DNA of 64,000 nt from a phage. Of the stretch, positions 44,450 through 60,967 are shown one piece after another (position 1 is the stretch's first letter; every line of letters starts with the position of its first letter). The stretch is taken from NCBI GenBank assembly GCA_011911785.1, contig GCA_011911785.1_4084.1; one strand, given 5' to 3'. The translations under genes and the position numbers were made by a program. The notes under the pieces were generated by a model. That model searched no databases and was not told the DNA's origin. It was given only the letters and a program-made list of their open reading frames with translations.

Positions 44450-44493
44450 TGAATTAAATGATTCAGTACTAAAACTATTAGTCAGAAAATAAT

Positions 44494-45107: not shown

Positions 45108-45114
45108 GTTCTAC

Positions 45115-45143
45115 TTGACATCATGCCTCGTATGGGGTATGAT
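45115..45143 (+). promoter_or_regulatory. Sigma70-type promoter TTGACA-17-TATGAT at head of F1 array
   Basis: Read directly. Confidence 0.55.
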
Positions 45144-45177
45144 GTTTTTTCATATATGAACCTATGGAATTTGCCCT

Positions 45178-45375
45178 ATGCGTATTTTAACCCAAGAAGA
45201 GCATCACGAAAGACTTATCAATAACATGGCTATGATAATGTATAAGTCACATAAACGTGGTAATGCCTATAAACGTGAATTAGTTATGGAACTATTCTTA
45301 GGAACTAACTTACAAAATGAATATGTTAAACTATATGTAAAAGAGTTATGTTTAGAGATAAATGGTAAACTATGA
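45178..45375 (+). CDS. F1 family small protein (65 aa)
   Basis: Motif FLGTNLQNEY. Confidence 0.5.
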   Translation: MRILTQEEHHERLINNMAMIMYKSHKRGNAYKRELVMELFLGTNLQNEYVKLYVKELCLEINGKL

Positions 45376-45572
45376 AAATGCGTACATTAACTCAAGATGA
45401 ATATCATCATATACTACGTAAAAACACGGCAAGGATTTACCAAAGCAATGTGCACTTAGAAAGAGTTGAGTTGTACCTTTTGATTACGATGGGAACAAAC
45501 TATCAGGAAGTGTGGATAACTCACTATTTGGAATCTTTGAAAGCTGACATACGAGCGAGGTGCAAACATTGA
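45372..45572 (+). CDS. F1 family small protein (66 aa)
   Basis: Motif MGTNYQEVW; ATGA overlap. Confidence 0.5.
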   Translation: MKMRTLTQDEYHHILRKNTARIYQSNVHLERVELYLLITMGTNYQEVWITHYLESLKADIRARCKH

Positions 45573-45778
45573 AAATCATAACACAGACACAAGCATTTGG
45601 TCGTATATTGAAATACCTTGATGACATGATAGATATACATAGTGACCTCCCTAAAACTGTAATCGACGCCAAAAGAGCAGAATATCGCATGATGGCTGTA
45701 CTGGACACAAACTTTCAGGAAGAGTATGTCAATGATTGGATTGGATTTTTAATTGAAGATATAAAGAGTAAACTATGA
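45560..45778 (+). CDS. F1 family small protein (72 aa; non-ATG start, alternative TTG at 45569)
   Basis: Motif LDTNFQEEY. Confidence 0.45.
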   Translation: MQTLKIITQTQAFGRILKYLDDMIDIHSDLPKTVIDAKRAEYRMMAVLDTNFQEEYVNDWIGFLIEDIKSKL

Positions 45779-45987
45779 TTATATTAACACCAGAGCAATA
45801 TAGGAAACGTTACAATTCTAAGCAGATTGAAATCTTGCTGATATATGCAGACAGGGATGATGTATACTTATCAAAAGTTATGGAAAAAGAATTACTTATG
45901 GGTGTCTTCTTAGGAACTGACCACCAGAAATCTTATGTCCAAGAGTATCTAATAGCTCTTGAGAAATACATCAGGAGTAAACTATGA
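45775..45987 (+). CDS. F1 family small protein (70 aa)
   Basis: Motif FLGTDHQKSY; ATGA overlap. Confidence 0.5.
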   Translation: MIILTPEQYRKRYNSKQIEILLIYADRDDVYLSKVMEKELLMGVFLGTDHQKSYVQEYLIALEKYIRSKL

Positions 45988-46208
45988 ACTGCATTAATAA
46001 CTTTGAATACGAGGCTCGCTCAAGGTGTGCATCTCAAAAAGAGAACCACATTTACTTCACTATGATGTACTTATCTTGGAATGAAATTGAAGAAATGGTT
46101 GCTGAAGTATGGCTGTTTGAATTCATGGGGACGCAGTATCAGAATAGGTTTGTGGGTGAGTATCTTAATGTTCTTATGAAACATATAGAAAGAAAGGGAA
46201 TGAACTAA
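45984..46208 (+). CDS. F1 family small protein (74 aa)
   Basis: Motif FMGTQYQNRF. Confidence 0.5.
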   Translation: MNCINNFEYEARSRCASQKENHIYFTMMYLSWNEIEEMVAEVWLFEFMGTQYQNRFVGEYLNVLMKHIERKGMN

Positions 46209-46459
46209 TGAAAGTATTATCAAGCACTGAGTATCAATCTGCCCTATTCTCTCTTATCAATACCCTTCGCAAGAACAATGAACTTTATCCTTCCCCTGAG
46301 AATGATGTAGTTAATGGTGACGTGTTTCTACTTAAATTCGTTGGGACTAATAAACAAGTTATCTTCACTGATCGTTATATCAATGCACTAAGAAACCTTG
46401 TAGCGTATAAAACCCGCCAGGCCAAAAGAGAATGGAAGAGACAATGCGATCCAGAATAA
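46208..46459 (+). CDS. F1 family small protein (83 aa)
   Basis: Motif FVGTNKQVIF. Confidence 0.5.
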   Translation: MKVLSSTEYQSALFSLINTLRKNNELYPSPENDVVNGDVFLLKFVGTNKQVIFTDRYINALRNLVAYKTRQAKREWKRQCDPE

Positions 46460-46692
46460 ATCACATCATGTACGTTAAACTATTTCAGAAACTAATCCAC
46501 AAACACTATGATACAGTATCTGATAAACTCACTAATGATATCAGCAGACTTATTCACTGTGAAGCAGAGATGCTTGTACTGATGACGGGAGACGATACAC
46601 AAACAATCGCTAAGGCAATAGAGAACTATCTGGAAGCATATCAACAACATATAAGAACGGAAGTCTGGAGACGAGAGAATGAAAATCCTTAG
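46432..46692 (+). CDS. F1-like small protein, degenerate motif (86 aa; start uncertain)
   Basis: LMTGDDTQTIAKAIENYLEAY in the motif position. Confidence 0.4.
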   Translation: MEETMRSRINHIMYVKLFQKLIHKHYDTVSDKLTNDISRLIHCEAEMLVLMTGDDTQTIAKAIENYLEAYQQHIRTEVWRRENENP

Positions 46693-46894
46693 TGGGTATG
46701 AATATTACAGGCTGTTGCGAACTATACAAGCAAAAGTTTCTAGTATTTCTTTAAACAAATCTATTGCACAAGTGGACAAATGTGTTATAATAACTGAAAT
46801 GAAGCTATCTATCTTCATTGGGACAAACTATCAAAGCATCTACACTGACGCATGGTTAGCAAGTCTACGTAACAAGGTGATATCCAGAGAATGA
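46679..46894 (+). CDS. F1 family small protein (71 aa)
   Basis: Motif FIGTNYQSIY. Confidence 0.5.
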   Translation: MKILSGYEYYRLLRTIQAKVSSISLNKSIAQVDKCVIITEMKLSIFIGTNYQSIYTDAWLASLRNKVISRE

Positions 46895-47109
46895 AAAATT
46901 TACAAGGTTTTGAATATATTAAGCTTCTGCAAACCTGTGAAATCCAAAGAAGAAAGATTCAAAAGGCTAAAAGAATTACCGCAGAACGAAAGTTTACACT
47001 GATAACTGAAGTCTATGTAGAGGCACTCTTAGGCACAAACTATCAACAAACGTATATAGACCTATGGATCGATGCACTCCAGAAAGAGGTTAAAAGTAAA
47101 TGCAAATGA
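46891..47109 (+). CDS. F1 family small protein (72 aa)
   Basis: Motif LLGTNYQQTY. Confidence 0.5.
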   Translation: MKNLQGFEYIKLLQTCEIQRRKIQKAKRITAERKFTLITEVYVEALLGTNYQQTYIDLWIDALQKEVKSKCK

Positions 47110-47324
47110 TTAATTTAAGTAAAGATGAATATTATGTACGTCTTGCAAAAACTTATTCATTACGCAAGGCCATTTATGAAAGTCACATTATTGAACAATC
47201 AAATAAGTGGATTGTAGTAAATGAGATCAAGATGCTTTCAGTCTTAGGAACAAACTATCAAGCGAGTGCTGTACTGAAGGTCATTAATGCACTTCAAAAT
47301 GAGGTCCAAAGTAAATGCAAATGA
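47100..47324 (+). CDS. F1 family small protein (74 aa)
   Basis: Motif VLGTNYQASA. Confidence 0.5.
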   Translation: MQMINLSKDEYYVRLAKTYSLRKAIYESHIIEQSNKWIVVNEIKMLSVLGTNYQASAVLKVINALQNEVQSKCK

Positions 47325-47578
47325 TTAATTTAAGTCAAGATGAATATAACGAGCGACTTGCAAAAATCTCACCTAAACGTAATGCAATCTATCACAGCCA
47401 AGAAATTCAACACAGTAAGAAGATGATTATGTTTCGTGAGTTAAAGATGGGTGTCTTCTTAGGAACAAACTATCAAGAGACAGAAGTAAATCGCGTCATA
47501 ACCGAGTTACTCATGGAAATCAGAGGTAAGCTGTACTTTCATCAAATGACCCAACCACTGAGGTGTAATGAGAAATGA
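47315..47578 (+). CDS. F1 family small protein (87 aa)
   Basis: Motif FLGTNYQETE. Confidence 0.5.
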   Translation: MQMINLSQDEYNERLAKISPKRNAIYHSQEIQHSKKMIMFRELKMGVFLGTNYQETEVNRVITELLMEIRGKLYFHQMTQPLRCNEK

Positions 47579-47811
47579 ATAAAATTAATAACATCAACTT
47601 AGCAGAAAGATTTGATAGAATTGGGGAAGCTCTGAGAAGATACGATAAAGCATATGGTCATTTAAGCTTTACCATAGAAACGAGATATGCCCTTGAAGAA
47701 GAGTTTAAAATGCATAGTCTCTTAGGCACACAGTATCAAAATCAATATGTTCAAAATTGGATTGAACTTTTAATCCAAACAATTCATGTGAGGAACATAA
47801 AATGCAAATGA
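47575..47811 (+). CDS. F1 family small protein (78 aa)
   Basis: Motif LLGTQYQNQY. Confidence 0.5.
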   Translation: MNKINNINLAERFDRIGEALRRYDKAYGHLSFTIETRYALEEEFKMHSLLGTQYQNQYVQNWIELLIQTIHVRNIKCK

Positions 47812-48056
47812 TATACTTAACAGACGATGAAATAAAAGAAAGAATAATTAAATCCAGAAAACATACAAATCAACTTCCAAAAGACCCAAATCAAACCCCT
47901 GCTGAAAGGAGTGCAGAAGTATTATATCAACAACTCCTGTACTTTCTTGGGACTGATAGACAGGATTATTATGTTCGATCGATTCTTAGATATCTTAAAA
48001 TGACTATTCAGGAAAAGATACATGACCAAATATATAAAAATCTTAACAGTCAATGA
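47802..48056 (+). CDS. F1 family small protein (84 aa)
   Basis: Motif FLGTDRQDYY. Confidence 0.5.
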   Translation: MQMIYLTDDEIKERIIKSRKHTNQLPKDPNQTPAERSAEVLYQQLLYFLGTDRQDYYVRSILRYLKMTIQEKIHDQIYKNLNSQ

Positions 48057-48279
48057 ATATCATAAGATTATCATGAAGACTAATATTGAGAATTCTAAAA
48101 AATCAAATACCAAGTACATTCTGGAACACACATTTGAAGAACGACAATTAGCTTTAGTTGAAGCAAAACTTCTTGCACTATTAGGGACTAACTATCAAGA
48201 CGAGTACGTAAGAAAACTAATATACCTTTTAACTAAACATATAAGAAAAAGAAAAGCACATGAAACACTTGACAGATGA
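48022..48279 (+). CDS. F1 family small protein (85 aa)
   Basis: Motif LLGTNYQDEY; overlaps upstream gene by 35 nt. Confidence 0.45.
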   Translation: MTKYIKILTVNEYHKIIMKTNIENSKKSNTKYILEHTFEERQLALVEAKLLALLGTNYQDEYVRKLIYLLTKHIRKRKAHETLDR

Positions 48280-48490
48280 CGAATACGGTGTTATCATCCT
48301 TGATGTTATCAATAAAGAATACCATAGGAAACAACGATACGCTTGTTATGAAGATAAACAGCTTTCTATAGCTGAACAACAATTAGTTCATTTATTAGGA
48401 ACAAACTATCAAGAACAATGCACTGAACGTTACCTGTATCTACTGTCGAGGAAAGCAAAAAGAGATTATGAAAATTTTAAACGAAGGTGA
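48260..48490 (+). CDS. F1 family small protein (76 aa)
   Basis: Motif LLGTNYQEQC. Confidence 0.5.
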   Translation: MKHLTDDEYGVIILDVINKEYHRKQRYACYEDKQLSIAEQQLVHLLGTNYQEQCTERYLYLLSRKAKRDYENFKRR

Positions 48491-48683
48491 TGAAGTAATA
48501 TTACTTATAGAGAATTCAAGTAAATTCTTAAACATATCACTGTCTGATATAGATGAAGATGACAAAGAAGTACTGAGAGCAGATTTAAGAGTACTGTTAC
48601 ATCTCGGAACAAACCTACAAGAGCAATTCGTTGAGGACTACATCGATGAACTTAAAGAATCAGTACTGAGAAGATGCAAATGA
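48468..48683 (+). CDS. F1 family small protein (71 aa)
   Basis: Motif HLGTNLQEQF. Confidence 0.5.
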   Translation: MKILNEGDEVILLIENSSKFLNISLSDIDEDDKEVLRADLRVLLHLGTNLQEQFVEDYIDELKESVLRRCK

Positions 48684-48925
48684 AAATCCTTTCACCAAGT
48701 GAATACCACGAACTATTAAGTAGTTTAATTCCAAAGTTACATCGTAGCTGGTCAGCAGAATTATCACAGGATGAAAAAAATATTCTAATAAGTGAAATCT
48801 ATGTTCTAGCTACTATAGGAACTAACTATCAAGAACACATCATCGTGGATTATATTAATACACTTCAAAGGTCTATCCAATGCAAATGCGAATCATTACC
48901 GGAGAAGAATACCGAACAATCATAA
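48674..48925 (+). CDS. F1 family small protein (83 aa)
   Basis: Motif TIGTNYQEHI. Confidence 0.5.
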   Translation: MQMKILSPSEYHELLSSLIPKLHRSWSAELSQDEKNILISEIYVLATIGTNYQEHIIVDYINTLQRSIQCKCESLPEKNTEQS

Positions 48926-49122
48926 ATGGACTGTTTTTGAAGTTATTTGCCATTAACACATCAAAACTACCAGACACGGATAAAATTATTAAGTTAAATG
49001 AAATCTACGTTCAAGCAACTCTAGGAACTAACTATCAAGAAGCCAATGTTTATAATTACATTAATACACTTAAAAGGGTAATACAATTAAAATGCACAGA
49101 CAGCACATACACAAACCCCTAG
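48880..49122 (+). CDS. F1 family small protein (80 aa)
   Basis: Motif TLGTNYQEAN. Confidence 0.5.
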   Translation: MQMRIITGEEYRTIINGLFLKLFAINTSKLPDTDKIIKLNEIYVQATLGTNYQEANVYNYINTLKRVIQLKCTDSTYTNP

Positions 49123-49322
49123 GAACAGCAGAATACCTTGAACTAATGGCAGCAAACTTCTCATCCTTTCAGAAACTGATGCAAGAATCAAATAATGATT
49201 TAGAATATCATATCAAAAGTTCAGATTTAAGATTGTTACTCACTCTAGGAACAGACAGTCAGTACCAATTCGTACAGGAGCATATTAGAGCACTTTTAAA
49301 TGGCATCAGGAATAAACTATGA
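49092..49322 (+). CDS. F1 family small protein (76 aa)
   Basis: Motif TLGTDSQYQF. Confidence 0.5.
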   Translation: MHRQHIHKPLGTAEYLELMAANFSSFQKLMQESNNDLEYHIKSSDLRLLLTLGTDSQYQFVQEHIRALLNGIRNKL

Positions 49323-49534
49323 AGACAATATCTAATCAAGAGTACTTAGAACTATTCAGAAAGAATAATCACAAATTTTTAGTACTTGATACAAGAACTG
49401 ATATAGGGGAACTTGAAAAAAATCTTTTGCGTTCAGAGATGATAGTACTGACACTCTTAGGAACACAGCACCAAGAGAGAACTGTTAATTCACACATAGG
49501 GATTCTTATACAGATAGTACAGGAAAAGATATGA
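49319..49534 (+). CDS. F1 family small protein (71 aa)
   Basis: Motif LLGTQHQERT. Confidence 0.5.
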   Translation: MKTISNQEYLELFRKNNHKFLVLDTRTDIGELEKNLLRSEMIVLTLLGTQHQERTVNSHIGILIQIVQEKI

Positions 49535-49752
49535 GAATCATAACACAACAAGATATTCTTAAGTTCACAAGGGTTCATGCATCTGAATTTGATGCTATAT
49601 TATCAAAAAGTTACAACAACCCTTATACAGAAGATGTACACTACAGTGAATTATGGGTGTATATACTTTTAGATACAAATTATCAAGAGCAAGCAGTACA
49701 GAAGTATTTGACAGCTTTAAGTACTGCTATTGCTAATGGAATAGGTGTTTAA
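49531..49752 (+). CDS. F1 family small protein (73 aa)
   Basis: Motif LLDTNYQEQA. Confidence 0.5.
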   Translation: MRIITQQDILKFTRVHASEFDAILSKSYNNPYTEDVHYSELWVYILLDTNYQEQAVQKYLTALSTAIANGIGV

Positions 49753-49754
49753 AA

Positions 49755-50096
49755 ATGAAAACTAATATTCAACTTAAGGTTTATAAATCATTTGCAAGTA
49801 CATATATCAAATGCAGTCTATGTAAAGATGTAATGGACTACAAAGGTAAGCCATTCACGATTACTTACGATTCTACAAGAGGTTTTTATATATCTTTTGC
49901 TGATTACAAATATAACATGTACGAACACATTGACATTAAAGATTTAAGTACTTTATCTGAAGAAGAATACTTTCAAGAATCATTAGTATGGGATTTAGAG
50001 TTTCCTATGCCATTGGTACATAAGATGATAGTACTAATAAAAGAAACTAAACAGGAGCCTAATAGTGCTTATGAAGAACACATTATTGAGTACTGA
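49755..50096 (+). CDS. F2 family protein (113 aa)
   Basis: Motif SEEEYFQESLVWD. Confidence 0.5.
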   Translation: MKTNIQLKVYKSFASTYIKCSLCKDVMDYKGKPFTITYDSTRGFYISFADYKYNMYEHIDIKDLSTLSEEEYFQESLVWDLEFPMPLVHKMIVLIKETKQEPNSAYEEHIIEY

Positions 50097-50099
50097 ACC

Positions 50100-50330
50100 A
50101 TGAAAAGATTATCATTCGAAGAGTACTGCAAGCTTATTAATACTTTACAACCACAAATAAAACAAATAAATTCTCTTCCTATATCCCAAGAAGAACGTGC
50201 AGTACTGAAAGATGAGTTAATTTTAAAATGCACAGTAGGTACTAACTATCAAGCTGATAGTGTTCGTTATCTAATTTGGGGTTTAATGTGCATAATAGAG
50301 AACAAAGCAGTTGACAGTACTCTAATGTAG
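50100..50330 (+). CDS. F1 family small protein (76 aa)
   Basis: Motif TVGTNYQADS. Confidence 0.5.
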   Translation: MKRLSFEEYCKLINTLQPQIKQINSLPISQEERAVLKDELILKCTVGTNYQADSVRYLIWGLMCIIENKAVDSTLM

Positions 50331-50378
50331 TGCTATAGTACTTGTACTTTTCGAGCGTTCTAATAGAGGGTACAGATT

Positions 50379-50624
50379 ATGTTAAAATTTTTAAATTTTC
50401 TTATCGTCTTGTGTATTGTTCTTGGGATTGCACCGTTTGTATTAGCGTATCTGGATTCAGATGAAATGCACAAGATGAATTGCACAAAGACAGGACAGAG
50501 TAGAAAAGAGACGGTTATGATGCCCGTAACGGTTATTGTGAATAACATGCCGATTACAAACATGGTCCCTACCCTAACGACAACGTACCAGTACTCTTGC
50601 GATGACGGAGAGAGATGGAGATGA
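50379..50624 (+). CDS. Small protein with N-terminal hydrophobic segment (81 aa)
   Basis: MLKFLNFLIVLCIVLGIAPFVLA. Confidence 0.45.
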   Translation: MLKFLNFLIVLCIVLGIAPFVLAYLDSDEMHKMNCTKTGQSRKETVMMPVTVIVNNMPITNMVPTLTTTYQYSCDDGERWR

Positions 50625-50958
50625 TGCGATAATGCGTAAGATCAATTGTATAAAAAGAGCGAATACATGTTTCATTGCGTTGACCAATGTACCGGGTGGG
50701 TCTGGTGTTAAGATATTTGAGTACAATAAAGTTGATAATTGTTTCTATTGGGTAGAAGGTATCAAATCATATGAAAATACGATAGCAGTACCGAATCTAG
50801 TTGATATCTCTGAAGAAGAAGAGTTTCAGTACATGTTAGTACACGATGATTCTTTTGGGTTGACATACAAAGAGATGAAGGAAGTACAAAGGCAGATGAT
50901 ATCATGTATGAATATTTCTAAGCATTTCCTTCAAAATATTCATCCAATTTACGTATAA
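50602..50958 (+). CDS. F2 family protein (118 aa; start may be 50632)
   Basis: Motif SEEEEFQYMLVHD. Confidence 0.45.
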   Translation: MTERDGDDAIMRKINCIKRANTCFIALTNVPGGSGVKIFEYNKVDNCFYWVEGIKSYENTIAVPNLVDISEEEEFQYMLVHDDSFGLTYKEMKEVQRQMISCMNISKHFLQNIHPIYV

Positions 50959-50967
50959 GAGATTAAT

Positions 50968-51303
50968 ATGAAATTCAACATTCATAGAATTAATTCCGGT
51001 TGTATATTTGCTTATACGCATGAGAATTACAAGAAGTACATGAATCATGAAGTACATTATGTTTTTGAGGACGGTAAAGAATATTTTGCTTATTTGAGTC
51101 CCAGGAGTTTAGGTAAGTACGAGTTGCTTCAGGATCTTTCTCTTATGCAGGAAGATGAATTATTTCAGTACAGTCTAATTCATGACCCTTATATGTTTGA
51201 TATAGATATTATGTGCAGTTTACAGAAGAGGATGAAAGAAGTTTGGGATTCGATTAAAAGAGGTGATTGTATAGAATATGATAGTATACAAGAAGATGCC
51301 TAA
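50968..51303 (+). CDS. F2 family protein (111 aa)
   Basis: Motif QEDELFQYSLIHD. Confidence 0.5.
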   Translation: MKFNIHRINSGCIFAYTHENYKKYMNHEVHYVFEDGKEYFAYLSPRSLGKYELLQDLSLMQEDELFQYSLIHDPYMFDIDIMCSLQKRMKEVWDSIKRGDCIEYDSIQEDA

Positions 51304-51496
51304 CGGATATGAATTGAAGTACAGACAGTTTATTCGAAATGTAGATTCAGATCCTTTTAATGTTAAAATGGCAGAGTTTGATTTATTATTTTATCTAGGA
51401 ACGAGAGCACAGCCACAATTCGTTGATGCATACATAAGGGCTTTACGAACAGAGATAGTATGCACACCAAAGGAGTCTAAATGTACAAAAATGTAA
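51278..51496 (+). CDS. F1 family small protein (72 aa)
   Basis: Motif YLGTRAQPQF. Confidence 0.5.
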   Translation: MIVYKKMPNGYELKYRQFIRNVDSDPFNVKMAEFDLLFYLGTRAQPQFVDAYIRALRTEIVCTPKESKCTKM

Positions 51497-51738
51497 ACCA
51501 TCATTTGTACGCATCGAAGTACAGGGATTTTTGTTTACAAGGGGGCGATGAAGATTTTGCTCTGCGATTATCGGAATTTAATATGTTATTTTATCTTGGT
51601 ACATCAGTACAAGAAGAAATGGTACAGAAATTTATCAAGCACCTTGAGCGAAAAATTCATACGCAAATTTTGGTTGTTAAGTTACAGAATGAGATAAATG
51701 AATACAATGCAGAATCTAACAATAGTACAGGATCTTAG
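51481..51738 (+). CDS. F1 family small protein (85 aa)
   Basis: Motif YLGTSVQEEM. Confidence 0.5.
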   Translation: MYKNVNHHLYASKYRDFCLQGGDEDFALRLSEFNMLFYLGTSVQEEMVQKFIKHLERKIHTQILVVKLQNEINEYNAESNNSTGS

Positions 51739-52099
51739 ACCAGTAATAATGATGTTAAATGCAAGACGAGATTTATGGCACGAAATGCATAACAAGAAGG
51801 ATTCATTTGCACAAATCAATTTAGTCTTTCAGGAGTTAATCCAGAGTGCATTGGGTGTTATCGAACCAAAATACAAAGATGGTATATTCTGTGTAAAGAA
51901 TGCAGTTCGTCCTCATGCAATTCCAAGGAAAATTAAGTTAGCCAGATTAACATTTGACGAGAGGGATTTCTTCAGTTATAATCCCAGTACAGCTTTATAT
52001 TTTATTCCTGATTCAGACAAATATCATCCTATCCATTACGGATGGATTATGTCTTATATAGTAAATGAAACGGAATACCCTATTAAATGGGAAAGATGA
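51698..52099 (+). CDS. Hypothetical protein (133 aa)
   Basis: ORF track; overlaps neighbours. Confidence 0.4.
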   Translation: MNTMQNLTIVQDLRPVIMMLNARRDLWHEMHNKKDSFAQINLVFQELIQSALGVIEPKYKDGIFCVKNAVRPHAIPRKIKLARLTFDERDFFSYNPSTALYFIPDSDKYHPIHYGWIMSYIVNETEYPIKWER

Positions 52100-52275
52100 T
52101 GATAGATACAAAGACATTAAATGCATTACAGGATTCATTATTAGATAGTATTAAGCTGTATTACAATATGCATTTGAGGGGTGGTATCAATGATTACAAT
52201 TATTATTTGAGTGTAATTATATTTGAGCATCTTTCAGTACAGGATAGAATTTTACACAAGTACAAACATTATTGA
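52087..52275 (+). CDS. Hypothetical small protein (62 aa)
   Basis: ORF track; ATG start. Confidence 0.35.
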   Translation: MGKMMIDTKTLNALQDSLLDSIKLYYNMHLRGGINDYNYYLSVIIFEHLSVQDRILHKYKHY

Positions 52276-52286
52276 GGAAACAAAAT

Positions 52287-52646
52287 ATGTTCAATAAAAT
52301 CATGTTCATTTTAACATTTGTGTTTTTATCATTCACAAACACCGCTCATGCAGCACAGGCAGTACAGGCATCATCGGATGTACCGTTATATGAAACATAC
52401 AAATTTGATTGCAGATTACAGAATAATGAAATAATCAATATCTTTTTACACAATACAGAAGTACCTTATTTGCAGATTGAAGCAACGAAGTACATGTATT
52501 ATGGTACGAATTCGGTACAGGAATTTTTATTTAAACACACAGAACAGGATGTAATTATATCATTGCAGTACGTTGATAGTTCATTGTCTTTAATGCATTT
52601 CAAGAATGCAGAGGGATTAGTTACAGTGCTCAAATGCTATAGGTAA
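52287..52646 (+). CDS. Small secreted protein with signal peptide (119 aa)
   Basis: MFNKIMFILTFVFLSFTNTAHA; RBS GAGGA; track TTG start 52272 rejected. Confidence 0.5.
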   Translation: MFNKIMFILTFVFLSFTNTAHAAQAVQASSDVPLYETYKFDCRLQNNEIINIFLHNTEVPYLQIEATKYMYYGTNSVQEFLFKHTEQDVIISLQYVDSSLSLMHFKNAEGLVTVLKCYR

Positions 52647-52652
52647 TAATAT

Positions 52653-53466: not shown

Positions 53467-53815
53467 TACATTTGATATTAATAAGTTAACAGAATGGTTT
53501 TATAATATTGAAATTGAAGCTATTCCGTATCACAAGTACGAACAACGTGATTTACGTAGTATAGATATTCGTGAGTTGTACGAGTATTATCAGAGTGCAT
53601 TAGAGATGCATAAGATATTTTTGAGTACAGAATACATGACACGTTGTAAGGATGCGTTTGATGAATTCAAGAAGAATGATAATTTAGTACAGAAATATGT
53701 AATAGCAAAGTACATGTACCTTCAGGGAATTACAAGTACAGTGCAATTCAATACAGTTCTTGCTTTAGTTGAGATTATTTTATTATGCAAAAATGTAAAG
53801 TGGAATTTAGTTTAG
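53447..53815 (+). CDS. Hypothetical protein (122 aa)
   Basis: No family motif; track start 53414 rejected. Confidence 0.4.
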   Translation: MTSKYNNTFDINKLTEWFYNIEIEAIPYHKYEQRDLRSIDIRELYEYYQSALEMHKIFLSTEYMTRCKDAFDEFKKNDNLVQKYVIAKYMYLQGITSTVQFNTVLALVEIILLCKNVKWNLV

Positions 53816-54282
53816 AGAGTGCTGTGCAGTACGTTAAGTACATTGAAGGTGTATACAATATAATGAAAGCATATGAAGGAAAAGGATATGCTTCAATAAA
53901 TCACAAATATGATTATATTAACAATCAGTTAGAAGAATCAAATTCAGGTAAAGTGCTTTTTAGTTTTTTATATTTTGCTCCTGACAATGTATATCCTGAT
54001 GAAAATGATCTTCGTCTGGAAAGAGATGACCTTTGGTATATGTATCCAGGACGTGATAAGCCAATGGATGATGCTTTGTTGGAAATCAAATACAGTCCAG
54101 AACCCTTGACACCGGAGTTGTGGTTCCAGTACAGTACAATACATGAAGAAATTGATATCTTTTTCTACGCAATATACAAGATGCTTTATGAGAATGGTGT
54201 GCTTAAGAATCATGTATATTTTTATTTCCAGCAAATGAAAAATGTATATGAGTCCTTTTACCCAACCGAGCCTGTATCGTAA
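53785..54282 (+). CDS. F2 family protein (165 aa)
   Basis: Motif TPELWFQYSTIHEE. Confidence 0.5.
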   Translation: MQKCKVEFSLESAVQYVKYIEGVYNIMKAYEGKGYASINHKYDYINNQLEESNSGKVLFSFLYFAPDNVYPDENDLRLERDDLWYMYPGRDKPMDDALLEIKYSPEPLTPELWFQYSTIHEEIDIFFYAIYKMLYENGVLKNHVYFYFQQMKNVYESFYPTEPVS

Positions 54283-54308
54283 GATATGGGCTTTTTTTCG
54301 TTTTGGTA

Positions 54309-54337
54309 TTGACACAGTACAGAATCGGTGCTAATAT
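54309..54337 (+). promoter_or_regulatory. Sigma70-type promoter TTGACA-17-TAATAT inside the F2 array
   Basis: Preceded by a weak hairpin + T7 run. Confidence 0.5.
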
Positions 54338-54363
54338 ACCTGAACATTTTTAAGGAGAACCCC

Positions 54364-54897
54364 ATGCAAACATCGCAAAAATCGCAAGTACAGAAAGCAA
54401 TGTCATTCAATGAAATTGGTGCATTTAAAGATAAGATTATTGATTGTATTGAATACGCGATTTGTAGTAATATCAAAAGTATAGAGGTATTTAACAAGTC
54501 AAATCGCTCTTACCATATGATGTACATTGCAAACAATAATGGTATCATTCCATTTGTTTCGGATAGTACAATATGGTTCGCTTGCGATGTGAAAAAATAC
54601 ACAATAGGTTCATATGTCTTCGGTAAACATGGTGATCTAATTATTCCTGAGCATTGTATGCAAGAAGAAGAATATTTTCAAAAGCAATGTGTACATGAAC
54701 CATTAGAGATGGTTGCTTTATATATGATACCTTATATCTCTAAATGTGTTCATGAGAATAAAGCTCCGTGGAATCATGAATTTGTATCGTTGAAGTTATT
54801 GTATAATGTTTTAGTACAATATTATGATTACAGACACGAGGGTACAATCAGCGATGTATGGGATTTCGAAAATTTAAGGGTAAAAACATATGAATAA
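54364..54897 (+). CDS. F2 family protein (177 aa)
   Basis: Motif QEEEYFQKQCVHE; RBS AAGGAG; track start 54328 rejected. Confidence 0.5.
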   Translation: MQTSQKSQVQKAMSFNEIGAFKDKIIDCIEYAICSNIKSIEVFNKSNRSYHMMYIANNNGIIPFVSDSTIWFACDVKKYTIGSYVFGKHGDLIIPEHCMQEEEYFQKQCVHEPLEMVALYMIPYISKCVHENKAPWNHEFVSLKLLYNVLVQYYDYRHEGTISDVWDFENLRVKTYE

Positions 54898-55528
54898 TTT
54901 TCCAAGAAATGCTTCACCGTATGAGGTGATGAAGTTCATGGAGCCTCATGTTCCTTATATGTTTGAAATGCTAAAGAAGTTCAATGCTATTTTCCCTGAG
55001 AATTCAAAATTGGAGATTCCATTTGATTCCGCATCCAGATACAGTGCATCCTGTGGTAAATTAGTTTTAGTTATCGGTAGTGACAGAATAGGTTTCAGGG
55101 AAGTATTTGACACGTCATTAGCATTTGGTATATTCGATAACAACAATAACATCACATACATTGACAAGTACATTTGCGACATAGCAGGTTCCTCTAAGCC
55201 GGATTCCTTTGTGGATTCAGTTGCAGATTATGGTGTTTCAAAAGATGGTAATGTAATAAGTACAAAGACGTTCATATCATTATCGTTAGAAGATGACATA
55301 TGTTACATTGCAGGGCAAGAGTACGAGGGTGTAGAGGAAGTGCTTTTTCAAATGTCCTTAGTACAGAAGGATATGGTGGACCCTACCGAAATCCTGAAGT
55401 TGTGCAAATATGCGAATGAGTACAAGAAATTGATTGAACCTGGGTTTAGTTTCAGTGCACAGAGTCCGCATTTTCAGATAAAAGTATATGAAGATTTCAT
55501 TTTGAAGTTAAAAGAGATTGTGTTATAA
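54890..55528 (+). CDS. F2 family protein (212 aa)
   Basis: Motif VEEVLFQMSLVQKD. Confidence 0.5.
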   Translation: MNNFPRNASPYEVMKFMEPHVPYMFEMLKKFNAIFPENSKLEIPFDSASRYSASCGKLVLVIGSDRIGFREVFDTSLAFGIFDNNNNITYIDKYICDIAGSSKPDSFVDSVADYGVSKDGNVISTKTFISLSLEDDICYIAGQEYEGVEEVLFQMSLVQKDMVDPTEILKLCKYANEYKKLIEPGFSFSAQSPHFQIKVYEDFILKLKEIVL

Positions 55529-55580
55529 TACGCAATAACATGCAATAACACACAATACAACAAAGACGGGAGTGATTTAG

Positions 55581-56117
55581 ATGATCCAGCACAAACATTT
55601 TGAGTACGAGTTCGCTGACAATTTAGTAAAAATCGTACAGGCGTTTGAGGCTGGGGATTTTGACCACATCTATCCTAAGCACAAGGAAGGATGGCTTGAG
55701 CCTAAGAGCGATATTGAAAAGTATCCATCTATTGTGTATTACAGGAGAGATACGGTAATGCACGCTGTAGGTGAGAAGATGCAGTTAGAGTATTGTCTTT
55801 TGTTCAATGCTATTACATCGGCTACATCAGCATCTGAAGAGTTCGCTCCAGTGAATTGGATTCGTTATTTGGATATGAGCAAGAGAGAGGAAGAAACCTT
55901 TTTTGGTTTAACAAAGCACGTTGATATTGCAACCTTGAATCCTAACATCCTGAGTCCTGAAGAATATTTTCAGGAGTCCTTAGTACAAGATCCTTATATT
56001 TTACAGGTGCAGCAAGTATATAATGTATTACGTGCTAATGTGAAAACGAATTTCTTTTTAGCTTTAACGTGGTACGATAGGTTAGTAAAAGATCTCAAAG
56101 AGATTAAGGGGGAGTAA
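55581..56117 (+). CDS. F2 family protein (178 aa)
   Basis: Motif SPEEYFQESLVQD. Confidence 0.5.
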   Translation: MIQHKHFEYEFADNLVKIVQAFEAGDFDHIYPKHKEGWLEPKSDIEKYPSIVYYRRDTVMHAVGEKMQLEYCLLFNAITSATSASEEFAPVNWIRYLDMSKREEETFFGLTKHVDIATLNPNILSPEEYFQESLVQDPYILQVQQVYNVLRANVKTNFFLALTWYDRLVKDLKEIKGE

Positions 56118-56683
56118 TGCTGGACCTTCAGGACATAGAAAGTACATGCAAAGCGATAGAAGATGATTTAGAATACATCAAGGGGTTGTATTTAATTGTA
56201 GATAGGATTTACAAAAATCCGAATGCGTTTCAGGAAACGTACCAGCATGATAAATTTCGACACGAACCAATCATTACGCTTATGTCGGATTTATCGATTT
56301 ACGAAAGAAAATCCAACAAATCACATAGTGTATTATTTGTGAGTACAGATAGATTTTACAGTACAACATCAATTTGTTCAGATGTATCATGTGCATGGTT
56401 CAGTTCAAATGAATATATAACAGTTAAAAATAATGGCGAAAATGAGAAATTAAAAGTAAGTGAGCTTATTGATTTGATGCCATATAGTCCTGATGTAGTG
56501 TTTCAGTACAGTACATTGCACGATTATAATTCAATACGATATCGTTATTTTGTTAAGCATTATTATGATACCTTCGGGGAGTTAACGGAGAAGTTAACGT
56601 TGAGATTTGACCGTGATATTGATCTCGTTGCAATGCTTCAGTACATACAGTACGTGTTTGATAAGGACGCGGAAAAGGGGTAA
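56117..56683 (+). CDS. F2 family protein (188 aa)
   Basis: Motif SPDVVFQYSTLHD. Confidence 0.5.
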   Translation: MLDLQDIESTCKAIEDDLEYIKGLYLIVDRIYKNPNAFQETYQHDKFRHEPIITLMSDLSIYERKSNKSHSVLFVSTDRFYSTTSICSDVSCAWFSSNEYITVKNNGENEKLKVSELIDLMPYSPDVVFQYSTLHDYNSIRYRYFVKHYYDTFGELTEKLTLRFDRDIDLVAMLQYIQYVFDKDAEKG

Positions 56684-56895
56684 TTTTAAAATGATAAATA
56701 TAGGCTTGTTTTTGGGGGCGTTTTGGGGGGTCAAAAAAATTTTCGCTGAAAAACATGTTAAGGTATATGTTTAATATAAAATTTTATATTGTGTTTTTCA
56801 GAGTACAGTTCATGTTTCCTTAAACAAAAAATACCCCGCCGCCGAACGTGCTCCTTATATTGTAGTTTACCTTATTAATTATAGTAGAGGTTATT

Positions 56896-57252
56896 ATGAG
56901 CAATGATTTTGCTATTCACAGTTTTTTCTACAAAAAGGTTGAGTTCTATTGTAATCTCGTTAAGGGTGATACCAATCATTCGTTGGACCAATATATTAAG
57001 TACACCTCAAATGGATTTTCTTTTATTGATTACGGTCGAGTGGGTGGTGGTGTTAATGAACCTATGCTGGACTATACAGAAATGGATGAGGCTACACTAT
57101 TTCAGGAATCATTAGTGTTCGATAAGAAATATATTTGTACACTAGATGAAGTTATTGGTATTCAGAATATCATGAAAGAACACTCTGCGAAGTGCATGAT
57201 AGAATTAACTCAAGATAAGCACAAGACTGTTCAGTACCATTTCAATCTTTAG
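56896..57252 (+). CDS. F2 family protein (118 aa)
   Basis: Motif DEATLFQESLVFD. Confidence 0.5.
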   Translation: MSNDFAIHSFFYKKVEFYCNLVKGDTNHSLDQYIKYTSNGFSFIDYGRVGGGVNEPMLDYTEMDEATLFQESLVFDKKYICTLDEVIGIQNIMKEHSAKCMIELTQDKHKTVQYHFNL

Positions 57253-57263
57253 GGGTCTTAACT

Positions 57264-57608
57264 ATGACATACAATGAATACCGTGAAATAGATCTTCTCC
57301 AGAATACATTATATGAAATTGAAGATTTAATGCACGGATGGACAAGTCTTTCTTTCTTTAATGAAATGTTCGAAGAAATAAAAGTAGTACTACAGAAAAA
57401 ACATAATGGTACTAAAATTAAAATAAAGACTTTCACTGGAGAAGTCTGGTGCGGAGAAATTGTGAAATACATTATAACTCGCAATAACGCATCATTCTGT
57501 TTGAATACTGGTCATTACAGAAATCATTTCAACAATAGCAGTACTCAAGTTATTTCCGAGGAAGAATACAATGAGCACTGTAATAAACTTCTTAAGAGTA
57601 GATTCTAA
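57264..57608 (+). CDS. F2-like protein, degenerate motif (114 aa)
   Basis: ISEEEYNEHCNKL in the motif position. Confidence 0.4.
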   Translation: MTYNEYREIDLLQNTLYEIEDLMHGWTSLSFFNEMFEEIKVVLQKKHNGTKIKIKTFTGEVWCGEIVKYIITRNNASFCLNTGHYRNHFNNSSTQVISEEEYNEHCNKLLKSRF

Positions 57609-57934
57609 TGAATACTAAAATATATGTTTCTTCAAGTACAATGGGAAGTGGTTTTACTTATACGTGCTTTTTTACTACATTGAATAAAACACCTATATTG
57701 ATTATTCGTGATTTCAATGAATGTAATATAGAGTACGTATCCAAAACAGATAAGCTTCCTAATTACATCGAATGCGAATACATGGAGAACTATGAAAGTT
57801 TTATATTTCAGGAATCATTAGTATGGGATAAAGAAATCGATTTCTTTATGTACCTTGCATTACAAAAGTACTACAGAGATAACAAGGACCAAATAGTTCG
57901 TTCTTGCATTTATTCTATTAATCTGGAGTACTGA
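57608..57934 (+). CDS. F2 family protein (108 aa)
   Basis: Motif ESFIFQESLVWD. Confidence 0.5.
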   Translation: MNTKIYVSSSTMGSGFTYTCFFTTLNKTPILIIRDFNECNIEYVSKTDKLPNYIECEYMENYESFIFQESLVWDKEIDFFMYLALQKYYRDNKDQIVRSCIYSINLEY

Positions 57935-58104
57935 TGCTTAAAAAAGAACAAATGGAATCATTAATGAATGCAGTTATTCGTCGTTTTGTTAAAGACATTA
58001 GTCATAAAAACTGTATTACAAATGACAGGTACGGTATAGAATTGTATATAGCTAATATTCACATGGCGTACAGAGAATATATTAAGACACGTCACAGGGG
58101 TTGA
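57934..58104 (+). CDS. Small ORF (56 aa), likely 3' remnant of an F2 copy
   Basis: Ends ..KTRHRG + GGTTGAAATGAG junction identical to the end of 58106-58588. Confidence 0.3.
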   Translation: MLKKEQMESLMNAVIRRFVKDISHKNCITNDRYGIELYIANIHMAYREYIKTRHRG

Positions 58105-58105
58105 A

Positions 58106-58588
58106 ATGAGTTTAGAAAGTGCATTGAAAGAAGCAAAGAAGATTCATGAGTACATGAATATGGCAAAAGAAGGTTCAGTTTACGGTATTTTCAAAGACAC
58201 AAGTACTCAATATTATGTCTCTGATAACCTCATTGATAATGACTTCCCAGATACAGAAACGTGCGTACTAGATACCGACCCTAATGATTATGAATGTTTC
58301 ATTGATATGCATAATGAGTACATGGTCTATGTTAATGATGGAGATATTACCATCTACAGTACTGTCCACGATACCGATGACATTATAATTCCGTGTGCAG
58401 TACTGGAAGGTCCGTGGGATAGTGAAGAGTATTACTTCCAACAAAGTACTGTATACAATGAAGAAGAACTTGATTGTATTGTAATTATGTGGTACTTTAA
58501 AAGTATTGGTTCTGAGAACTTCTATTTCGATTACAGATACGTAAAGAAAACTGTAGATAACGGTATTAATAAACTTCACAGGGGTTGA
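58106..58588 (+). CDS. F2 family protein (160 aa), one of a recently duplicated triplet
   Basis: Motif SEEYYFQQSTVYN; N-term MSLESALKEAKKIHEYM. Confidence 0.55.
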   Translation: MSLESALKEAKKIHEYMNMAKEGSVYGIFKDTSTQYYVSDNLIDNDFPDTETCVLDTDPNDYECFIDMHNEYMVYVNDGDITIYSTVHDTDDIIIPCAVLEGPWDSEEYYFQQSTVYNEEELDCIVIMWYFKSIGSENFYFDYRYVKKTVDNGINKLHRG

Positions 58589-58589
58589 A

Positions 58590-59033
58590 ATGAGTTTAGA
58601 AAGAGCACTAGAACTAGCCAACAAAATACATCACTTCCACGATAACATAAAAAGTGGGTTCTATGGTGATAAAGTAAGTGCATTTGGTAATGAGTATTAT
58701 CTATCAGGTATAAAGACATACTCTGCTGATATTTTACTTATGGGTCATGATAAAGACAATACTATACAGTACTCTTCATGTAGTCAATATACTAGTTTTA
58801 TGGTATATATTCCAGGTACTAAGATTACTTTTGACACATCAAATTCACCTGTTGACTTCGGGGTACTTGATGGCCCGTGGGGTACTGAAGAGTATTACTT
58901 CCAACAGAGTCTCATTTTTAACCAAGAAATGCTTGATTCCTTGGTTGTGTTGTGGTACTTTAAGGAATTGAATTTTGAACCATTCTTTCTTGACTGGGGA
59001 GCATGTGAATATTTAAGTACAGGGGATTTGTAA
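58590..59033 (+). CDS. F2 family protein (147 aa), triplet member
   Basis: Motif TEEYYFQQSLIFN. Confidence 0.55.
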   Translation: MSLERALELANKIHHFHDNIKSGFYGDKVSAFGNEYYLSGIKTYSADILLMGHDKDNTIQYSSCSQYTSFMVYIPGTKITFDTSNSPVDFGVLDGPWGTEEYYFQQSLIFNQEMLDSLVVLWYFKELNFEPFFLDWGACEYLSTGDL

Positions 59034-59488
59034 TGTCGTTACAAAGTGCATTGAAAGAAGCAAAGAAGATTCATGAGTACATGATTAAGGTCAAAGGTGG
59101 AGAAATTCCAGGTATCTTCAAAATGTCAGAGACTGAATATTGCACGAAGAATATTGAGGATTTTGATGGTTCTGATACATTAGTACTGCAATGTGATGAT
59201 TATGATCATGATAATTGTGGTTATAACCCTTTGTACTACTTTATCAATTACTACCCAGGGTCAGATATAACCGTATACAACCCTGATTATTATGCTAAAG
59301 ATTTGACAATTCCGTTTTCAGTACTGGATGGTCCGTGGGATAGTGAAGAGTATTACTTTCAGCAAAGTACTGTATATACTGAACATGAACTCGATACTCT
59401 GGTCATTATGTGGTACTTTAAAAGTATAGATTCAACATGTTTCTATATGGATTATGAATACATAGAGACACAGAAATATAAGAGGTAA
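59033..59488 (+). CDS. F2 family protein (151 aa), triplet member
   Basis: Motif SEEYYFQQSTVYT; 5' ~40 nt identical to 58106 gene. Confidence 0.55.
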   Translation: MSLQSALKEAKKIHEYMIKVKGGEIPGIFKMSETEYCTKNIEDFDGSDTLVLQCDDYDHDNCGYNPLYYFINYYPGSDITVYNPDYYAKDLTIPFSVLDGPWDSEEYYFQQSTVYTEHELDTLVIMWYFKSIDSTCFYMDYEYIETQKYKR

Positions 59489-59493
59489 TTGTA

Positions 59494-59940
59494 ATGTTTT
59501 TTTATTATTATGAAGTAAATGATAAGTTGGTTCAGGATATTGTACAAATAATCAAGTACTTCAATGATAATCCTAAAGTATTGGGTAGTGAACTTGAATA
59601 CGAGAAAGGTGGGTGTGTATATTTTACTTTCTGCGGTGGGTGCTCTGATGAGCAATCATTTTTCAATTCTTATTCAAATTACATCTCCTATAATGCACTT
59701 GCAGACGAGTTGATTGTGGTACGTGACAGTAGTGATGACCGTACAGTGTATACCAGAGAGACAATACAAAGTGTAGGTAATGAAGAAGGATACTTTCAAT
59801 TGAGTACAGTACTTAATCATGAAGAACTACATGTATTACGTTTGTTTTATCTTATTAGTACTATGAACTTGAAGCACGATCAGGTATACATTGATTTAGA
59901 TTACTTTGAGTACTTACGTAAGATTAGTTCTAAAAAATAA
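59494..59940 (+). CDS. F2 family protein (148 aa)
   Basis: Motif NEEGYFQLSTVLN. Confidence 0.5.
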   Translation: MFFYYYEVNDKLVQDIVQIIKYFNDNPKVLGSELEYEKGGCVYFTFCGGCSDEQSFFNSYSNYISYNALADELIVVRDSSDDRTVYTRETIQSVGNEEGYFQLSTVLNHEELHVLRLFYLISTMNLKHDQVYIDLDYFEYLRKISSKK

Positions 59941-59950
59941 GTTCATGCTA

Positions 59951-59978
59951 TTGACAAGAGCCTGTACTGTGTTACAAT
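59951..59978 (+). promoter_or_regulatory. Sigma70-type promoter TTGACA-16-TACAAT
   Basis: Read directly. Confidence 0.5.
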
Positions 59979-60012
59979 GCACAGTAATATTAATTCAAAA
60001 GGTGCACATTAA

Positions 60013-60546
60013 ATGATTATTGATGCTTACAATGCTGAGGAAATGCAGGAATTATCTCGTAAAATCAACATTATAGTTCCTTTGCTTAAGGATTGCAGTA
60101 CTGGTTTGATTCCATCACGAGACATTATTAAAGAAGGATACTACCTACAGGCAGTCTATAAGGGTGGTACATTTCATCGTTGTCGTGTATTACGTGATGG
60201 CCTTCCTGCACTTACACTTATTGGTATTGGTATTGCCGTATGCGGCACGAACCGTTTGTACTTGAATGAAAAAAATCAAATCATGAATTTGTTTTATACA
60301 GGAAAAAGTACTGAATTATATTTTGGTATTCAGAACTGGTGGGATACAGTAAAGAGTAGTACTATTGAAATCCCAAAATACAATTACAACACATTTGAAG
60401 AGCAGATGTTTCAATTGTCATGTACAGATGACATGTACATGATTCTACGTCTCTATATGGAGATGCAAATGAACTTCAGAAGTAATTTATACATTGATAC
60501 TTCAACATTTGAATTCGAAGATGTATTCGTTGATGGTATATTATGA
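60013..60546 (+). CDS. F2 family protein (177 aa)
   Basis: Motif FEEQMFQLSCTDD. Confidence 0.5.
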   Translation: MIIDAYNAEEMQELSRKINIIVPLLKDCSTGLIPSRDIIKEGYYLQAVYKGGTFHRCRVLRDGLPALTLIGIGIAVCGTNRLYLNEKNQIMNLFYTGKSTELYFGIQNWWDTVKSSTIEIPKYNYNTFEEQMFQLSCTDDMYMILRLYMEMQMNFRSNLYIDTSTFEFEDVFVDGIL

Positions 60547-60770
60547 AGTATATTCCAAAACACCAGTACTACAGGATGTGTTCTGACATTTACACAAAAT
60601 GGAATACATTTCATCCCCTTTTGAAGAAGAGGCGTCCATATCATGATTACAAGTTGAATCATTTTCTTGGAACTAATTATCAAGAGGTTGTGATGAAAGA
60701 TTACATTTTTAACCTTCAGAAATTAATTCAGAATAAAGTTCAAGGAAAGGGGGAGTCACCGTGGGTATAA
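60543..60770 (+). CDS. F1 family small protein (75 aa)
   Basis: Motif FLGTNYQEVV. Confidence 0.5.
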   Translation: MKYIPKHQYYRMCSDIYTKWNTFHPLLKKRRPYHDYKLNHFLGTNYQEVVMKDYIFNLQKLIQNKVQGKGESPWV

Positions 60771-60967
60771 GACACAGAGACATGCAAGATATTCTTAACC
60801 AATACAGTGCTCAAATGTTCACTGCAATCAGGTCTTCCAATCAAAATGACGTGTCGGAATTACAGTTACTGATGTACATAGGGACACAATACCAGGAGGC
60901 TTCAGTTGAGACGTATATTAAGTACCTATTGGGTATTATAAGGATGAAAAATGGACAATACTTTTGA
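60761..60967 (+). CDS. F1 family small protein (68 aa)
   Basis: Motif YIGTQYQEAS. Confidence 0.5.
   Translation: MGIRHRDMQDILNQYSAQMFTAIRSSNQNDVSELQLLMYIGTQYQEASVETYIKYLLGIIRMKNGQYF

Follow-up and report, generated by a model that had tools for sequence, protein, structure and literature searches.

What use could a phage have for a row of some twenty small genes that are all variants of one another? The question is posed by a 64,000-nucleotide stretch of phage DNA (contig GCA_011911785.1_4084.1; "the window" denotes this whole stretch), which matches the Asteriusvirus jumbo coliphages (PBECO4/121Q/phAPEC6 group). In it, 21 consecutive open reading frames (ORFs) between positions 45178 and 49752, and five more further downstream, encode small proteins that an original prediction, made from the sequence alone, had singled out as paralogues sharing an N-terminal pattern and a C-terminal LGTNYQ block. 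We confirm that all 26 ORFs belong to one protein family, here called F1, conserved at the protein level. The explanation that we find best overall, and hold with evenly balanced confidence, is that the F1 genes would provide an early-expressed, diversified repertoire of binding proteins acting in host takeover or anti-defence, a reading that leans on analogy with other viral gene sets.

The 26 ORFs, taken from program-made lists, all lie on the plus strand and encode proteins of 65-87 amino acids (aa). A hidden Markov model (HMM) built from them and scanned against the six-frame translation of the window retrieves just these 26, with none extra even at E ≤ 10, and when each member is left out in turn (leave-one-out, LOO), 25/26 are regained with E from 5e-21 to 3e-8. 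The sole failure is gene 7 (46432-46692), which carries TGDDTQ where the others have LGTNYQ; a 119-sequence profile built without gene 7 regains it at E=2e-11, and its orthologues in four other genomes are 65-67% identical. In the alignment of the 26 members the T of the motif is invariant, the Q and a downstream L are kept in at least 90% and the G in 23/26, while the N-terminal M-K-x-L-x3-E-Y pattern is found in about two thirds. The paralogy and shared block proposed earlier are thus borne out by the scan, the LOO recovery and the larger profile. The alignment, a mean pairwise aa identity of 24% and the spread of charge also uphold the earlier description of a diversified repertoire, as opposed to identical copies: isoelectric points (pI) span 4.4-9.7, 14 members being basic and 8 acidic, and both loop length and C-terminal tails vary. 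The grand average of hydropathy is negative in 25/26 members and +0.09 in the remaining one.

Such a family could be an artefact of a tandem nucleotide repeat or of chance ORFs, a possibility that we consider practically negligible. Mean pairwise nucleotide identity among the members is 41%, third codon positions agree at 0.33 against 0.29 expected from composition, and the conserved residues are written in several synonymous codons (Leu six, Gly four, Thr three, Gln two), and therefore F1 is not a nucleotide repeat; the repeat origin, which the original prediction had itself raised as a possible refutation, is rejected. Synonymous sites are saturated between paralogues. Chance ORFs are rejected too, given the HMM scan, the LOO recovery (E-values down to ~1e-21) and the conserved orthologues with a ratio of nonsynonymous to synonymous divergence (dN/dS) of ~0.3, and the confident fold prediction described below likewise speaks against an artefact.

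The family is already present, unnamed, in databases. Twenty-five of the 26 members match PHROG 4148 ('unknown function') at E ≤ 0.01 (best E=2.8e-27), gene 7 is linked to it via the extended profile (E=2e-11), and it is also matched by the homologue in phage RaK2 and by a fusion protein, P0124; PHROG 4148 and F1 are the same family. The PHROG entry carries no annotation, structure or function, and neither the tandem array nor its adjacency to a terminal repeat is recorded there. The earlier statement that the motif belongs to no characterised family therefore stands insofar as no curated domain matches, but the family had already been clustered. Searching Pfam with the 26 members gave only single-member matches (E ≥ 0.001) to 22 unrelated families, NCBIfam gave none and a PDB sequence profile search nothing significant, so that the match to a characterised domain family that could have undone the claim was absent from all three. 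PADLOC, which covers defence and not anti-defence proteins, returned only five weak single-member matches, and no anti-defence protein was found in PDB sequence and fold searches. When 1.84 billion cluster representatives were searched exhaustively with the HMM, just 95 clusters came up, which makes F1 a narrow family; nearly all of these proteins are 52-121 aa long, plus one 269-aa fusion. This fusion, P0124 (positions 8001-8810 of contigs L004-L006; found in some Asteriusvirus genomes), joins an F1 domain (residues 1-63) to a C-terminal domain of ~200 aa that has no homologue but itself in 5.8 billion proteins, matches nothing in Pfam or PHROG and is not the domain of F2, a second paralogous family of the window. 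Its use as a 'Rosetta stone' for F1 function was rejected because the C-terminal domain has no informative relatives.

The searchable literature yielded no account of this family, whether of the fold, of how the array is built or of its place at a repeat boundary; paralogues in RaK2, CBB and phAPEC6 are mentioned there just generically, and there is no transcriptome for any Asteriusvirus. What is new here is the description of the family, fold, array and repeat-boundary position, the genes themselves being public already as 'hypothetical proteins' and as a PHROG. That jumbo phages expand sets of paralogues is already documented (PMC3622015, PMC7824862, PMC7247149). The published small-domain expansion in a jumbo phage is likewise large, lineage-restricted and of unknown function, and differs from F1 in fold and family.

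What, then, do the conserved residues do? An AlphaFold2 (AF2) model of the gene 8 protein (predicted local distance difference test score, pLDDT, 97.4; predicted template-modelling score, pTM, 0.81) is a three-helix bundle (residues 6-25, 31-46 and 52-70) with a beta-bridge from residue 2 to residue 49, the T of the LGTNYQ motif, and independently predicted BFVD models of F1 members superpose on it with template-modelling (TM) scores of 0.73-0.90. In this model the LGTNYQ block forms the helix 2-helix 3 connection and is bridged to the N-terminal strand, and it would most simply be a structural element rather than a functional site. The conserved positions as a whole would similarly make up a scaffold, comprising the strand, the E-Y start of helix 1, a Glu in helix 2, LGTNYQ and the hydrophobic residues of helix 3, which are spaced i, i+3/4, i+7, i+11, i+15; this assignment derives from the secondary-structure map and not from model coordinates. 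A fold search with the model returned no informative neighbour.

The F1 genes of the window have collinear reciprocal-best orthologues in phages A4, 121Q, Sharanji and fEgEco12 and in a metagenome relative, with 50-100% identity to orthologues against 28-53% to the best paralogue. Across 77 orthologue pairs, median dN is 0.20, median dS 0.46 and median dN/dS 0.35 (pooled 0.32), and this ratio, together with the conservation of orthologues, indicates that the genes are individually maintained, yet fast-evolving for phage proteins. Conservation among orthologues is highest in the scaffold columns and lowest (identity 0.46-0.58) in parts of helix 1 and at those helix 3 positions that lie off the heptad pattern. 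Gene order is kept across the genus and all 26 reading frames are intact. At least 34 Asteriusvirus genomes carry the array. Copy number is lowest in A4 (25), followed by the window (26), 121Q (27) and three others (29 each); the partial loci of fEgEco12 and Sharanji hold 30 and 31. Identity to A4 is 90-100% over genes 1-16, A4 has no gene 18, and genes 18-19 match fEgEco12 at 91-92%, a pattern which points to a mosaic array shaped by unit gain or loss and recombination. Outside the genus, RaK2 and K64-1 (Alcyoneusvirus, Klebsiella phages) carry ~10-13 members grouped in small clusters, of which the first occupies the corresponding place behind a region of the promoter-cassette type described below; the uncultured contig L007, a distant one with no nucleotide match among deposited phages, has 6, and the divergent metagenome contig L013 has 16, 12 of them consecutive, after a cassette-type region and then a sigma-70-like promoter. 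Since it is present in all four, the family is older than the genus; between genera, identity falls to 30-40% and the relationships among members do not resolve.

The members are listed below, with E-values from the LOO test unless otherwise stated and SD standing for Shine-Dalgarno.

45178..45375, plus strand: F1 gene 1, 65 aa; E=5e-11; PHROG 4148 E=6e-15; 100% aa identity to phage A4
45372..45572, plus strand: F1 gene 2, 66 aa; E=2e-16; ATGA overlap with gene 1
45560..45778, plus strand: F1 gene 3, 72 aa from GTG; alternative TTG at 45569 gives a 4-nt overlap; motif DTNFQ; E=9e-12
45775..45987, plus strand: F1 gene 4, 70 aa; E=3e-13
45984..46208, plus strand: F1 gene 5, 74 aa; E=7e-12
46208..46459, plus strand: F1 gene 6, 83 aa; TAATG junction with gene 5; E=3e-8
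46432..46692, plus strand: F1 gene 7, 86 aa; most divergent (TGDDTQ); LOO fails; 119-sequence profile E=2e-11
46679..46894, plus strand: F1 gene 8, 71 aa; member modelled by AF2 (pLDDT 97.4); E=7e-16
46891..47109, plus strand: F1 gene 9, 72 aa; E=8e-19
47100..47324, plus strand: F1 gene 10, 74 aa; alternative ATG 47106; E=6e-20; nearest paralogue gene 11 (53% aa identity)
47315..47578, plus strand: F1 gene 11, 87 aa; alternative ATG 47321; E=5e-21
47575..47811, plus strand: F1 gene 12, 78 aa; E=5e-13
47802..48056, plus strand: F1 gene 13, 84 aa; alternative ATG 47808; E=1e-9
48022..48279, plus strand: F1 gene 14, 85 aa; E=9e-16; no reciprocal orthologue in 121Q
48260..48490, plus strand: F1 gene 15, 76 aa; E=1e-12
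48468..48683, plus strand: F1 gene 16, 71 aa; most acidic, pI 4.4; E=2e-16
48674..48925, plus strand: F1 gene 17, 83 aa; alternative ATG 48680; stop of the putative ancestral junction lost (TGA to TGC), 46-nt overlap; E=1e-20
48880..49122, plus strand: F1 gene 18, 80 aa; alternative ATG 48886; not in phage A4; 92% identity to the fEgEco12 counterpart; E=5e-17
49092..49322, plus strand: F1 gene 19, 76 aa; E=8e-13
49319..49534, plus strand: F1 gene 20, 71 aa; E=5e-17
49531..49752, plus strand: F1 gene 21, 73 aa; end of the uninterrupted run; E=5e-15
50100..50330, plus strand: F1 gene 22, 76 aa; after one F2-family gene (49755-50096); E=3e-13
51278..51496, plus strand: F1 gene 23, 72 aa; subfamily with a different N-terminus; E=5e-10; best window match of an L007 member
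51481..51738, plus strand: F1 gene 24, 85 aa; E=4e-10; best window match of RaK2 and L007 members
60543..60770, plus strand: F1 gene 25, 75 aa; inside the F2 array; E=5e-12
60761..60967, plus strand: F1 gene 26, 68 aa, GTG start; E=1e-10; strong SD-like site, -10.7 kcal/mol

Within the 21-gene run all 20 junctions are overlaps: 7 ATGA, 1 TAATG, 4 ATGCAAATGA, 1 TTGA (if TTG 45569 is used) and 7 longer ones of 14-46 nt. The overlapping arrangement claimed earlier is therefore general in the run, but the claim that nearly all genes are coupled by ATGA or TAATG holds for only 7 and 1 junctions as annotated; a ATGCAAATGA junction becomes an ATGA overlap when the second ATG is the start. The junction sequence AAATGCAAATGA recurs at 47097-47109, 47312-47324, 47799-47811, 48671-48683 and 48877-48889, the same bases being read '...K-C-K-stop' by the upstream gene and 'M-Q-M' by the downstream gene. 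At the last of these, between genes 17 and 18, TGA is now TGC and gene 17 extends on, which would explain the 46-nt overlap there by loss of the ancestral stop. Together, the recurrent AAATGCAAATGA junction and its decay look like the footprint of unit duplication followed by stop loss. SD-like sites of -5 kcal/mol or better precede 12/26 F1 starts, against 12% of random array positions; that of gene 1 is weak.

Where the array sits is best seen by comparison with relatives. Over its first 3.8 kb the array region shares 97.8% identity with phage A4, and it is ~82% identical to some thirty other members of the group, all genes under these matches being annotated 'hypothetical protein'; the gene 1 protein also has an identical counterpart on ~359-kb contigs that bear the label E. 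coli but evidently represent phage genomes included in bacterial assemblies. The window itself consists of large minus-strand genes to ~20.5 kb and small plus-strand genes from ~24 kb to its end. In fEgEco12, direct terminal repeats (DTR) of 20,993 bp have been confirmed by restriction mapping (PMC13070987), and we checked that the final 834 bp of its record are identical to positions 20,160-20,993. The repeat ends at 20,993 and the first F1 start codon lies at 21,091, 97 nt on, with a promoter-like site in between, which places the array first among the transcription units that follow the left repeat in the unique region. Positions 24.0-44.5 kb of the window are homologous to this DTR (~21 kb): window position 24,031 aligns to position 353,248 of the fEgEco12 record, ~0.5 kb ahead of the right repeat copy, and 43,106-44,518 match at 90% the last 1.4 kb before the repeat end. 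The next 655 bp (44,519-45,173) stand in place of the 184 bp that hold the repeat/unique boundary in fEgEco12, so that the boundary placed here is that of fEgEco12. The 655-bp segment also bears a version of the array promoter specific to the window and A4. The features of this junction are:

44685-45107, within the 655-bp segment: orphan ORF of 140 aa with no significant Pfam match and no PHROG match
45115..45143, plus strand: putative sigma-70-like promoter, TTGACA-17-TATGAT, 11/12 consensus match, in the 70-nt gap before gene 1
45117..45146, plus strand: 13-pair hairpin with a T-run, overlapping the promoter spacer, in the window/A4 lineage only

The hairpin may terminate transcription of the 140-aa ORF that precedes it. 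Across 45115-45146 the -35 hexamer is paired with the -10 hexamer within the 13-pair hairpin, which is then followed by TTTTTT, and the same bases could thus serve as terminator for the upstream ORF and as promoter for the array. In fEgEco12, 121Q and Sharanji the sequence is different, yet a TTGACT-16-TATTAT or TAAAAT site, read by eye, is found at the equivalent place. The single sigma-70 promoter proposed at 45115 is a real promoter-like site but not a unique one, as matches equally good occur at 48269, within the array, and at 50311. On the plus strand between 45146 and 52029 the sole terminator-like site is a weak 5-pair stem, and no strong one is seen. Just past the site at 50311 (TTGACA-17-TATAGT) lies an 81-aa ORF (50379-50624) with a hydrophobic N-terminal stretch and a match to PHROG 8826 (unknown function), which could mark the beginning of a separate transcription unit, located between F1 gene 22 and the F2 genes. 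Rfam has no match within the window, and the window contains no tRNAs.

The repeat-homologous region upstream is organised differently. Between 24000 and 44520 on the plus strand, at least 30 copies of a ~90-nt intergenic cassette stand before nearly every small gene, each with an A-tract, AAAAAGTACTTGCA (TTGCA) or TTGACA, 17 nt, (T)GTATAAT, a GC-rich hairpin in the 5' untranslated region, an SD and the ATG; judged by sequence, each small gene would have a strong sigma-70-like promoter to itself. The early-type setting suggested for the array fits with a sigma-70-like promoter at the terminal-repeat boundary and with what is known of PA5oct, a relative in the clade that relies on host RNA polymerase and whose terminal-repeat genes are highly transcribed early (PMC7318152).

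From these elements, we propose that Rak2-like jumbo phages possess, in F1, a multigene family specific to their lineage, whose small soluble proteins all fold into one compact unit, an N-terminal strand and then three helices. The conserved residues (M-K-I-L strand, E-Y, helix 2 Glu, L-G-T-N-Y-Q and the heptad-spaced helix 3 hydrophobics) would build this fold, while paralogues would be told apart by the residues at exposed positions, the loop joining helices 1 and 2, their C-terminal tails and their net charge. The 21-gene run would be transcribed as one polycistronic message from a host-type (sigma-70-like) promoter at the junction of left terminal repeat and unique region, the overlapping frames coupling translation of neighbouring genes, and the operon would be expressed early, directly after the terminal-repeat genes. 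Its products could then act as a repertoire of binding modules, each for a different host, competing-phage or defence macromolecule. The array would evolve by gain and loss of single units, loss of stop codons at junctions and recombination between related phages, with the individual units under moderate purifying selection. The steps of early expression and binding rest on context and on analogy with PA5oct, T5, SPO1 and the poxvirus and African swine fever virus (ASFV) families.

Several observations weigh against this proposal. A dN/dS of ~0.3 is a sign of constraint and not of positive selection. The array promoter is a consensus match only, in a region where promoter-like sites are not in excess (97 against 100 expected from shuffled sequence). 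The array is also situated slightly beyond the terminal repeat and has none of the strong promoter cassettes that precede single genes there, so it could be delayed-early or middle rather than early. Finally, a three-helix bundle fits many functions, and the fold search did not narrow them down.

Could the F1 proteins instead be parts of a phage-internal assembly, binding each other or one phage partner through the conserved face of helix 3, with translational coupling fixing their proportions, for example in DNA organisation or in a replication or assembly structure? The overlap of all junctions in the run suits stoichiometric co-production, helix 3 has a conserved heptad-like hydrophobic pattern and genes 22-26 are interspersed with the F2 family, which hints at a shared context. 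We nevertheless find this unlikely, since the AF2 model, a very confident one, accounts for the conserved hydrophobics as core residues of the monomer itself, and gene-by-gene presence and absence between close relatives ill suits a fixed multi-subunit structure. F1 products are also undetected in virions of phAPEC6: its F1 genes are gp464c-gp484c, and no gp46x, gp47x or gp48x appears in the 62-protein virion table (PMC7247149), which also argues against packaged internal virion proteins similar to the internal proteins of T4, with the reservation that mass spectrometry can easily overlook proteins this small. Small DNA-binding regulators, with helix-turn-helix (HTH)-like helices 2 and 3 that tune the temporal transcription of the phage or silence host genes, are a decidedly unlikely alternative. 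Three helices and 14/26 basic members would be in keeping with it, and hydrophobic-L-G-(T/V)-x-x-Q resembles the turn and recognition-helix start of Cro/cI-type HTH proteins, the stretch in lambda Cro being D-L-G-V-Y-Q-S. However, no HTH family is among the Pfam matches even at E ≤ 1, the PDB profile search revealed nothing significant and the fold search returned neither an HTH match nor a DNA-binding neighbour.

That all copies do the same job, amplified to provide much of one activity, would be in line with a tandem arrangement in a single operon, but it is made very improbable by the 24% mean identity and saturated synonymous sites between paralogues, each of which has its own conserved positional orthologue, and by the wide variation in charge. 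Barely plausible, finally, is that duplications of a selfish or neutral kind, without function, built up the array as evolutionary filler, perhaps tolerated in a roomy headful-packaging jumbo genome: copy number does differ between isolates and no function is known, but the intact 26/26 frames, the dN/dS of ~0.3, the order kept across the genus and the retention of the family in RaK2-like phages and uncultured relatives at 30-40% identity all speak against it.

The proposed binder repertoire finds partial parallels in other viruses. Terminal-repeat early gene sets are found in large virulent phages, such as the pre-early genes of T5 and the host-takeover module of SPO1. These sets and the PA5oct DTR genes resemble the setting of F1 in that numerous small genes without known function are gathered on a single strand at the leading genome end, under host-type promoters. 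In contrast, the F1 array lies outside the repeat (97 nt beyond its end in fEgEco12), has one promoter-like site for at least 21 genes and no intergenic space, instead of one promoter per gene, and consists wholly of paralogues, with no sequence similarity to those sets. The multigene families (MGF) of ASFV and the 'genomic accordions' of poxviruses are terminal families of large eukaryotic DNA viruses with a role in immune evasion and host range. With these, F1 shares tandem paralogues beside a genome terminus or terminal repeat, and copy numbers that differ between isolates (25-31) through gain and loss of units; there is no homology, the hosts are bacterial and an immune-evasion or host-range role for F1 would be by analogy only. 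Pushed further, this analogy suggests a 'counter-immunity library', in which each paralogue, a common scaffold with a variable surface, would neutralise a different host defence or host-factor variant and the repertoire would be re-sorted by copy-number turnover and recombination between co-infecting relatives. We regard this narrower version as possible but doubtful; if true, it would be a bacterial-virus counterpart of the poxvirus and ASFV terminal families.

The role of the small-protein genes of jumbo phages, hundreds per genome, is a standing question, and the F1 family makes up ~5% of the genes of a 350-kb phage. With a simple and confidently predicted scaffold, a compact operon that could be removed or transplanted as a block and copy-number variation across more than 30 sequenced relatives, F1 is a practical entry point to these expansions. 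Should the host-takeover or anti-defence repertoire prove true, its 26-31 natural variants on one scaffold would be a binder set with mappable specificity determinants.

Two further observations concern the terminal-repeat region and its surroundings. On the minus strand, 9619-20499 hold a third array, of about ten paralogues of 310-472 aa, which relatives annotate as RCC1-like 'regulator of chromosome condensation / DNA condensation protein' and whose phAPEC6 counterparts (gp003-gp010) are virion proteins; with F1 on the other side, both flanks of the terminal repeat thus bear paralogue arrays. The minus-strand genes 6465-20499 had been considered as a 'core gene' comparator of evolutionary rates and were rejected, being another variable paralogous array of this RCC1-like kind. 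In the cassette-type early region of contig L013, a small gene (3046-3297) has a precomputed Pfam match to ParE_like, and its DNA is 75% identical to window ~38588-38799; by this similarity, the terminal-repeat region of the window may encode a protein with a ParE-like toxin fold.

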